From: Shigella phage sb1
DNA: 64,000 nucleotides
Sequence record: PQ666539
Strand: one strand, 5' to 3'
Part shown: positions 55,607-58,600 of the stretch, piece after piece
Numbering within the stretch: position 1 is the first letter of the stretch
Layout of the letters: each line of letters opens with the position of its first letter
The notes under the pieces: model-generated
Databases searched by the model: none
The model's input: the letters and a program-made list of their open reading frames with translations, nothing else
Told to the model about the DNA's origin: nothing
Made by a program: the position numbers and the translations under genes

Positions 55607-58600
55607 CTGGCCGAGATTAAAAGAAAGTTCAGAGCAGAAGATGGTCTGGACGCAGGTGGCGATAAAATAATCAACGTAGCTTTAGCTGATCGTACCGTAG
55701 GAACTGACGGTGTTAACGTTGATTACTTAATTCAAGAAAACACAGTTCAACAATACGATCCAACTCGTGGATATTTAAAAGATTTTGTAATCATTTATAA
55801 TAATCGTTTTTGGGCTGCTATAAATGATATTCCAAAACCAGCAGGAGCTTTTAATAGCGTACGTTGGAGAGCATTACGTACTGATGATAACTGGATTACC
55901 GTCTCATCTGTGTCATATCAATTAAAATCTGGTGAAGCTATTTCGGTTAACACTGCAGCTGGTAATGATATTACATTTACTTTGCCATCTACCCCAATTG
56001 ATGGTGATACTATCGTTCTCCAAGACATTGGAGTAAAACCTGGAGTTAACCAAGTTTTAATTACAGCTCCAGTGCAAAGCATTGTTAATTTTAGAGGTCA
56101 GCAAGTACGTTCAGTTTTAATGACTCATCCAAAGTCACAGATGATATTCATTTTTAATAATCGTTTGTGGCAAATGTATGTTGCTGATTATAGCAGAGAA
56201 GCTGCAATTGTTACTCCATCGACTGCATATCAAGCACAATCTAATGATTTTATCGTGCGTAGATTTACTTCCGCAGCTACAATTAATATTAAACTTCCGA
56301 GATTTGCTAATCATGGAGATATTATTAATTTTGTTGATTTAGATAAATTAAATCCGCTTTATCATACAATTGTCACGACATATGATGAAACAACTTCAGT
56401 ACAAGAAGTTGTAACTCATTCTATTGAAGGTCGTACATCGATTGATGGTTTCTTGATGTATGATGATAGTGAAAAATTATGGAGATTGTTTGACGGGGAT
56501 AGTAAAGCACGTTTACGCATTATAACGACTAATTCAAACATTCGTCCAAATGAAGAAGTTATGGTATTTGGTGCGAATAATGGAACAACTCAAACAATTG
56601 AGATTCAGCTTCCAACTAATATTTCTGTTGGTGATACTGTTAAAATTTCCATGAATTACATGAGAAAAGGACAAACAGTTAAAATCAAAGCTGCCGGGGA
56701 AGATAAAATTGCTTCTTAAGTTCAATTGTTGCAATTCCCAAAGCGCTCAGAATATCCGCCTGAAGCTGAATGGGTGACTGTCCAATAATTAGTTTTTAAC
56801 GGTGAAACTAATTATGTTCCAGTTTTACAGCTTGCTTATATAGAAGATTCTGACGGAAAATACTGGGTTGTACAGCAAAACGTTCCAACTGTTGAAAGAG
56901 TCGATTATTTAAATAATTATAATAGAGCAAGATTAGGCGTGATTGCTTTAGCTACACAAGCTCAAGCTAACGTCGATTTAGAAAATTCTCCACAAAAAGA
57001 ATTAGCAATTACTCCAGAAACATTAGCTAACCGTACTGCTACAGAAACTCGTAGAGGTATCGCAAGAATAGCAACTACTGCTCAAGTAAACCAGAACACT
57101 ACATTCTCTTTTGCTGATGACCTTATCGTCACTCCTAAAAAGCTGAATGAAAGAACTGCTACAGAAACTCGCAGAGGTGTTGCTGAAATTGCTACGCAGC
57201 AGGAAACTAATACAGGTACTGATGATACTACAATCATCACTCCTAAAAAGCTTCAAGCTCGACAAGGTTCTGAAACATTATCGGTTATTGTAACTTTTGT
57301 ATCTACCGCAGGAGCTACTCCAGCCTCTAGTCGTGAATTAAATGGTACAAATGTTTATAATAAAAATACTAATAATTTAGTTGTTTCGCCTAAAGCATTG
57401 GATCAGTATAAAGCTACTCCAACGCAACAAGGTGCAGTAATTTTAGCAGTTGAAAGTGAAGTAATTGCTGGACAAAGTCAAGAAGGATGGGCAAATGCGG
57501 TTGTAACGCCAGAAACGTTACATAAAAAGACATCAACTGATGCAAGAATTGGTTTAATTGAAATTGCTACGCAAAGCGAAGTTAATACAGGAACTGATTA
57601 TACTCGTGCAGTCACTCCTAAAACTTTAAATGACCGTAGAGCAACTTAAAGTTTAAGTGGTATAGCTGAAATTGCTACACAAGTTGAATTCGACGCATGC
57701 GTCGAAGATACTCGTATCTCTACACCATTAAAAATTAAAACTAGATTTAATAGTACTGATCGTACTTCTGTTGTTGCTCTATCTGGATTAGTTGAATCAG
57801 GAACTCTCTGGGACCATTATACCCTTAATATTCTTGAAGCAAATGAGACACAACGTGGTACACTTCGTGTAGCTACACAAGTTGAAGCTGCTGCAGGAAC
57901 ATTATATAATGTTTTAATAACTCCTAAAAAGCTTTTAGGTACTAAATCTACCGAATCACAAGAAGGAGGTATTAAAGTTGCAACTCAATCTGAAACCGTG
58001 ACTGGAATGTCAGCAAATACTGCTGTATCTCCAAAAAATTTAAAATGGATTGTGCAGAGTGAACCTACTTGGGCAGCAACTCCATCCATAAGAGGATTTG
58101 TTAAAACTTCATCCGGTTCAATTACATTCGTCGGTAATGATACTGCTGGTTCTACACAGGACTTAGAACTATACGAGAAAAATAGTTATGCAGTATCACC
58201 ATATGAATTAAACCGTGTATTAGCAAATTATTTGCCATTAAAAGCAAAAGCTGCTGACGCAAATTTATTAGATGGTCTAGATTCATCTCAGTTCATTCGT
58301 AGGGATATTGCCCAGACAGTTAATGGTTCACTAACCTTAACCAACCAAACGAACCTGAGTGCCCCTCTTGTATCATCTAGTACTGCTACGTTTGGTGGAT
58401 CAGTTTCAGCAAATAGTACACTAACTATTTCTAATACTGGAACGGCAACTCAATTAATTTTTGAGAAAGGACCTCAATCTGGAACAAACCCAACGCAGAC
58501 AATGACTGTAAAAGTGTGGGGAAATCAATTTAGCGGGGAGTCAGATACAACACGTTCTACTGTATTTGAAGTTAGTGATGAAACTTCTAGTCATTTTTAT

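Follow-up and report, generated by a model that had tools for sequence, protein, structure and literature searches.

The CTG in place of the gene 34 start codon of a T4-like phage sequence is very probably a sequence error in an error-laden copy of the genome

Gene 34 of the phage sequence analysed here is written with CTG where its relatives have ATG. We found that this CTG is very probably a non-biological A>C change at position 55607, in a copy of a Tequatrovirus (T4-like) genome that is laden with errors, and that gene 34 of the real phage almost certainly starts with ATG. The stretch of DNA under study (64,000 nucleotides, called the window below) combines natural divergence with a superimposed layer of G:C>T:A changes, which consists of substitutions only and is unselected. 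The window is a Tequatrovirus segment that runs from gene 14/15 to gene 37 and is colinear, at 95-97% identity, with the genomes of Ec_YwIITB1, pSs-1, sb2 and sb4. Our conclusion on the CTG is independent of the source of the sequence.

At the start site the window reads TATAAATA (55565-55572), then AGGAG (55593-55597), then CCCGGGAGA and CTG GCC GAG ATT AAA. The features of gene 34 on which the argument rests are listed here.

55565 to 55572, plus strand: T4-type late promoter TATAAATA of gene 34, identical in the window, T4, Ec_YwIITB1, pSs-1 and sb4
55593 to 55597, plus strand: intact Shine-Dalgarno sequence AGGAG, with a 9-nt spacer to the start position, identical in T4, Ec_YwIITB1, pSs-1 and sb4
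55607 to 55609, plus strand: CTG where the relatives have the ATG of gene 34, through the window-private A>C at 55607
55607 to 59476, plus strand: frame of gene 34, which encodes the proximal subunit of the long tail fibre; its 1289 codons are colinear with T4 gp34
55910 to 55912, plus strand: GTG at codon 102, the first in-frame start-like codon, from a private G>T (GGG>GTG)
56717 to 56719, plus strand: in-frame TAA at codon 371, TCA in the relatives, C>A
56786 to 56788, plus strand: in-frame TAA at codon 394, GAA in the relatives, G>T
57647 to 57649, plus strand: in-frame TAA at codon 681, GAA in the relatives, G>T
59156 to 59158, plus strand: in-frame TAA at codon 1184, GAA or GAG in the relatives, G>T

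The CTG aligns base for base with the gene 34 ATG of T4 (NC_000866), Ec_YwIITB1, pSs-1 and sb4, and from 68 bases upstream of the start to 17 bases downstream the A>C at 55607 is the sole difference from all four. An earlier sequence-only reading had reported CTG where ATG is expected and had proposed an alignment with the 5' end of T4 gene 34 as a check. In that alignment only the A>C separates CTG from ATG, and with the coordinates verified the codon at 55607-55609 is still CTG. The late promoter that it placed at 55565-55572 was found there, and the AGGAG that it described is present, although its coordinates are 55593-55597, shifted by one base from the 55594-55598 it had given. The predicted product also agrees, as it had claimed, with the N-terminus of T4 gp34 (LAEIKRKFRAEDG... 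in the window, MAEIKREFRAEDG... in T4).

The frame around the CTG offers no other start close by. Upstream, a TAG at 55592-55594, five codons before the CTG, closes the gene 34 frame. Downstream, there is no in-frame ATG, GTG or TTG for 101 codons, in keeping with the earlier estimate of about 100; the first such codon is the GTG at codon 102, and no GGAG-like Shine-Dalgarno motif was found just upstream of it. An open reading frame finder takes this GTG, itself the product of the private GGG>GTG change, as the start of the first gene 34 fragment.

We found that gene 34 in the window is an orthologue of T4 gp34 by its position between rnh and gene 35, by its transcription from a late promoter and by its product, which is ungapped over 1289 codons, with 1175/1289 residues identical to T4 and 1228/1289 to Ec_YwIITB1. 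T4 gene 34 (NC_000866, 150809-154678) has the same place between rnh and gene 35, the same late promoter and Shine-Dalgarno sequence and the same length of 1289 codons. Unlike the T4 gene, the one in the window has CTG for ATG and four in-frame TAA codons, leaving no open reading frame as written. Because of these four TAA codons, which the sequence-only reading had not noticed, gene 34 as written cannot yield gp34, whatever its first codon. Within the gene, at 57008-57987 on the plus strand, we also observed five copies of a 71-nt direct repeat, which have diverged to 61-72% identity with the reference copy; the TAA of codon 681 sits within one of them.

Twenty-four private G>T/C>A changes fall in gene 34 (2 synonymous, 18 nonsynonymous and 4 stop). 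This composition bears on whether a diversity-generating retroelement could have produced the CTG by targeted adenine mutagenesis of the tail-fibre gene. An A-to-N change in a tail-fibre gene is what such an element would leave, but the chance that one acted here is close to nil: the change is a single site at codon 1, the other private changes of gene 34 are mostly G>T/C>A, and a search of 50000-64000 gave no template/variable repeat pair, the only direct-repeat family there being the 71-nt motif internal to gp34.

The start codon was then compared across related genomes. A 49-mer centred on 55607, in which every 28-base megablast seed spans the variable base, gave 0 matches in 50,697 phage records when it carried CTG. 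With ATG, the same 49-mer matched 499 of these records, 488 of them at at least 99% identity. A pattern search that left this base open (N) gave 6 IMG/VR contigs and 7 metagenome contigs, all with A at the start position, and all four panel genomes have A there as well. The C at 55607 is thus a singleton at an otherwise invariant site.

These data weigh on the possibility that the phage carries a genuine ATG>CTG change, with weak CUG initiation at about 1-2% of normal supplying few tail fibres and the stops elsewhere being errors. In its favour, the promoter, the Shine-Dalgarno sequence and the spacing between the latter and the CTG are all intact, and CUG does initiate in E. coli, with an efficiency about 1-2% that of AUG (range 0.02-3%; Hecht et al., 10.1101/063800). 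Like the near-cognate starts of that E. coli system, the CUG of the window is well spaced from a strong Shine-Dalgarno sequence (AGGAG, 9-nt spacer). Unlike them, it is unconserved, with CUG in 0 of the 499 phage records and 0 of the 13 environmental contigs although 488 of these records agree with the window over the 49 bases around the site; it has no intact open reading frame behind it, the first stop being at codon 371 with three more to follow; and nothing suggests that it is used. We therefore regard a genuine CTG start as unlikely, and a non-biological change at 55607 as the better account.

The character of the window as a whole points the same way. Against a four-genome panel of relatives, we found 839 private substitutions in 63,815 comparable sites. 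G>T/C>A changes made up 274 of the 839 (33%), and they were strand-symmetric, with 133 G>T and 141 C>A. The same class accounted for 21/408 private changes (13 + 8; 5%) in the clean genome of pSs-1, for 52/667 in Ec_YwIITB1, for 42/462 in sb2 and for 159/669 in sb4. The G:C>T:A rate of the window is 1.16% of G:C sites, and owing to this layer its G+C content lies 0.2-0.4 percentage points below the panel. In coding DNA, the G>T/C>A changes comprised 20 synonymous, 153 nonsynonymous and 28 stop changes, compared with 17.9, 159.7 and 23.4 expected if they were unselected (p=0.49). The other classes deviated strongly from such an expectation, with a large synonymous excess: transitions stood at 243 synonymous, 61 nonsynonymous and 1 stop, and A<>T changes at 47, 15 and 1.

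The G>T/C>A changes are spread evenly along the window, and no sequence motif was found around them at positions -5 to +5. A systematic, k-mer-dependent base-calling error is unsupported, given the lack of a context motif and the even spread. No private frameshifting indel was found in the coding DNA of the window, which speaks against indel-type errors such as those of nanopore reads or modified cytosine. We take the G:C>T:A signature to be the one known for oxidised guanine (8-oxoG). Among the very few private indels of the window is a 5-nt insertion, TTTAA, at 53249-53253, in the intergenic region between gene 32 and gene 59.

To score the damage to genes, the clean pSs-1 annotation was projected onto the window. 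By this measure, 33 premature stops and 3 lost starts disrupt 24 genes out of about 81. The broken set includes terS, terL, the sheath gene, the scaffold gene, the major capsid protein gene, uvsY and the genes for gp51, gp27, gp29 and gp48, and further alt, rnlA, nrdA and the genes for gp32, gp34, gp35 and gp36. Nonsense codons in so many essential genes are incompatible with a viable, strictly lytic phage. Besides the CTG of gene 34, two starts are destroyed, and one premature stop, in the major capsid protein gene, is the only one that does not come from G>T/C>A.

575 to 577, plus strand: destroyed start of gene 15, ATG>ATT, G>T
39750 to 39752, minus strand: destroyed start of the small gene at 39516-39752, ATG>ATT on the coding strand, G>T
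11617 to 11619, plus strand: premature TAA in the major capsid protein gene, codon 274, TTA in the relatives, T>A

Codon 22 of the small gene at 39516-39752 is, in addition, a TAA. If changes are unselected, private substitutions at 1.3% should hit the start codons of about 2-3 of the roughly 81 genes, compared with the 3 seen; for the ATG>ATT class alone, 2 were observed and 0.94 expected. The CTG is therefore no more than the substitution load of the window would give. In nrdA, at 48397-48402 on the minus strand, two ochre codons stand side by side (TAA TAA, codons 124-125) where the relatives have GAA GAA. One of the stop sites of gene 32 is at 53212. Three further small genes, at 15039-15223, 35840-36206 and 40614-40743 (all on the minus strand), are 1-2 nt off their pSs-1 length and appear frameshifted in the projection; these length differences are not private to the window and are probably natural variation or annotation differences.

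Most of the new stops replace Glu codons (GAA>TAA, GAG>TAG), which superficially resembles a reassignment of stop codons to Glu. On such a reading, TAA, TAG and TGA would be read through by a suppressor tRNA or an altered code, CTG would be a legitimate start and the genes would be functional. We consider this so improbable as to be barely worth entertaining. Codons for Gly (GGA>TGA), Ser (TCA), Tyr (TAC) and Leu (TTA) have been turned into stops as well, and all three stop codons are used, but the genes still end at their usual TAA, TGA or TAG, in the same places as in the relatives. Moreover, G>T changes at the level of DNA fully explain the pattern, and they give rise to the 153 unselected missense changes as well.

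The A>C at 55607 is itself neither a G>T nor a C>A change, and the window shows no inflation of its class, A>C/T>G. Coding changes of this class comprise about 19-20 synonymous, 19-20 nonsynonymous and 0 stop changes, a strong deviation from the unselected expectation. Their synonymous-to-nonsynonymous ratio of about 1:1 is like that of the clean pSs-1 (9:9), and Ec_YwIITB1 has 14:18. Since the ratio is the same as in the clean genome, it lends no support to a second layer of errors, of A>C/T>G type, such as 8-oxo-dGTP would cause. The A>C at 55607, read as T>G on the other strand, is preceded by GGCCA, and an Illumina error promoted by an upstream GGC was also considered; it is unsupported as a class, with GGC within 12 nt upstream in 4/57 private T>G/A>C events compared with a background of 5.8%. 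The evidence for a general non-G>T error rate in the window is weak: among transitions, nonsynonymous changes are modestly over-represented relative to clean relatives (odds ratio 1.47, p=0.03), and no significant nonsynonymous excess is seen when all non-G>T classes are taken together (p=0.14). The T>A that has turned TTA into TAA in the major capsid protein gene, at codon 274, does indicate that a low rate of non-G>T errors exists.

Since A>C is not the dominant error type, we infer by association that the CTG belongs to the error load. We assign it there because it is unique among more than 500 genomes, because it is expected to be deleterious at the initiation rate of CUG, because lethal, unselected changes occur throughout the sequence, gene 34 included, and because the number of destroyed starts fits the unselected expectation. 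That A>C lies outside the main error class, and that its class looks naturally selected, does speak for a genuine start codon. Against this, the sequence holds lethal errors, one of them outside the G>T class, so that a trivial explanation for a singleton is at hand. In addition, gp34 is a structural protein of which 18 copies are needed per virion, and a 50- to 100-fold drop in its supply should, by reasoning rather than computation, be strongly counter-selected. The notable non-canonical or mutated initiator implied by the sequence-only reading thus finds no support, in a gene with four ochre codons and in a window where between a quarter and a third of all genes are broken alike.

Public records allow the defect to be placed in a wider setting. 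A published study describes four Shigella phages from Kolkata lake water, for each of which 50 ng of DNA was fragmented enzymatically, made into a PCR-amplified library, read on a NovaSeq 6000 and assembled with SKESA (PMC11993411). The lowest G+C of the four phages is that of ADG1 (PQ666539), at 35.16%, and gene counts are inflated in ADG1 (285) and in TMC4/sb4 (291), compared with 254-255 in the other two (PMC11993411). The sibling accessions used here are PQ666540 for sb2 (AKR2), PQ666541 for sb3 and PQ666542 for sb4 (TMC4); Ec_YwIITB1 is PQ356294. The G+C of the window minus that of sb2 is -0.27, and minus that of sb4 is -0.17; the published genome-wide differences of ADG1 from sb2 and sb4 are -0.33 and -0.19 (PMC11993411). 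These differences, together with the premature stops shared with sibling records, would fit an origin of the window in ADG1 or a sibling of it, but the agreement is circumstantial, and exact copies of seven window proteins were not found in a collection of 15 billion proteins.

The sb4, sb2 and Ec_YwIITB1 sequences are about 95-96% identical to the window, and all keep ATG at gene 34. The G>T/C>A excess of the window is shared by sb4, whose 159 private changes of this class include 20 stops in coding DNA and which has many split genes, but in sb4, unlike in the window, A<>T and A>C/T>G changes are part of the error layer too. In the sb4 record rnlA is in three pieces, and nrdA, td, alt, the ligase gene and the genes for gp13-15, gp27 and gp48 are split; fragmentation is less marked in the other two, with the gp34 and sheath genes split in sb2, and mcp and hoc in Ec_YwIITB1. 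Three premature TAA codons of the window recur at identical sites in sb2 or sb4.

4125 to 4127: TAA at codon 128 of the sheath gene, also in sb2 (PQ666540)
43017 to 43019, minus strand: TAA at codon 29 of the gene at 42750-43103, also in sb4 (PQ666542)
48397 to 48399, minus strand: TAA at codon 125 of nrdA, also in sb4 (PQ666542)

So many coincidences exceed what chance would give, the probability being about 0.06 for sb2 and about 0.02 for sb4. The shared sites suggest a common technical source. They also hint that the errors recur at some sites, despite the absence of a context motif.

The shared stops bear as well on the possibility that the window is a faithful sequence of a dead or damaged genome, for example a single, heavily oxidised DNA molecule that was amplified out of a minute input, or a particle that was mutagenised or defective, in which case gene 34 and many other genes would be true pseudogenes in that molecule. 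A random, strand-symmetric, unselected set of G:C>T:A changes is just what fixed 8-oxoG lesions on a single template would be expected to give. However, three stops are common to other records of the same study, which argues for a shared technical source, and the published method used bulk phage DNA, 50 ng (PMC11993411), if the window comes from that study. We hold this account to be most improbable, and in practice it would still make the CTG an artefact and not phage biology.

The account that we prefer, that of a sequence error, may be put as follows. A dense load of unselected, substitution-only changes, mostly G:C>T:A, destroys many essential genes, gene 34 among them, and the A>C of the start codon would be part of the minor, non-G>T fraction of that load. 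The load would probably have arisen in library preparation, sequencing or assembly; the closest public records that share the defect come from a single study and were assembled with SKESA from Illumina NovaSeq data. Costello and colleagues reportedly described, in 2013, an artefact of the 8-oxoguanine type, G>T/C>A, in Illumina libraries. The window shares with that artefact a strong, strand-symmetric, unselected, context-free and indel-free excess of G:C>T:A. It differs in that such artefacts normally have a low allele fraction and stay outside the consensus, whereas in the window the changes are within it, and in that the start-codon change is A>C. Gene 34 as written would yield no functional gp34, and no mechanism of initiation at CTG need be invoked.

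The biological significance of the gene 34 CTG is accordingly very small. If the CTG were true, it would point to a T4-like phage in nature that puts up with, or makes use of, a strongly throttled synthesis of tail fibres; we consider it very unlikely that the phage stock carries the CTG and makes gp34 from a near-cognate CUG at a few per cent of normal, with the stops as unrelated errors. The practical value of the finding lies in quality control. In the window and in at least one public sibling record, unselected G:C>T:A changes at about 1% fragment essential genes, and such records would yield spurious start-codon usage, pseudogene calls, protein families and 'novel variants'. Error can be told from divergence by a test of the kind used here, in which private substitutions are typed and their synonymous, nonsynonymous and stop proportions are compared with the unselected expectation.
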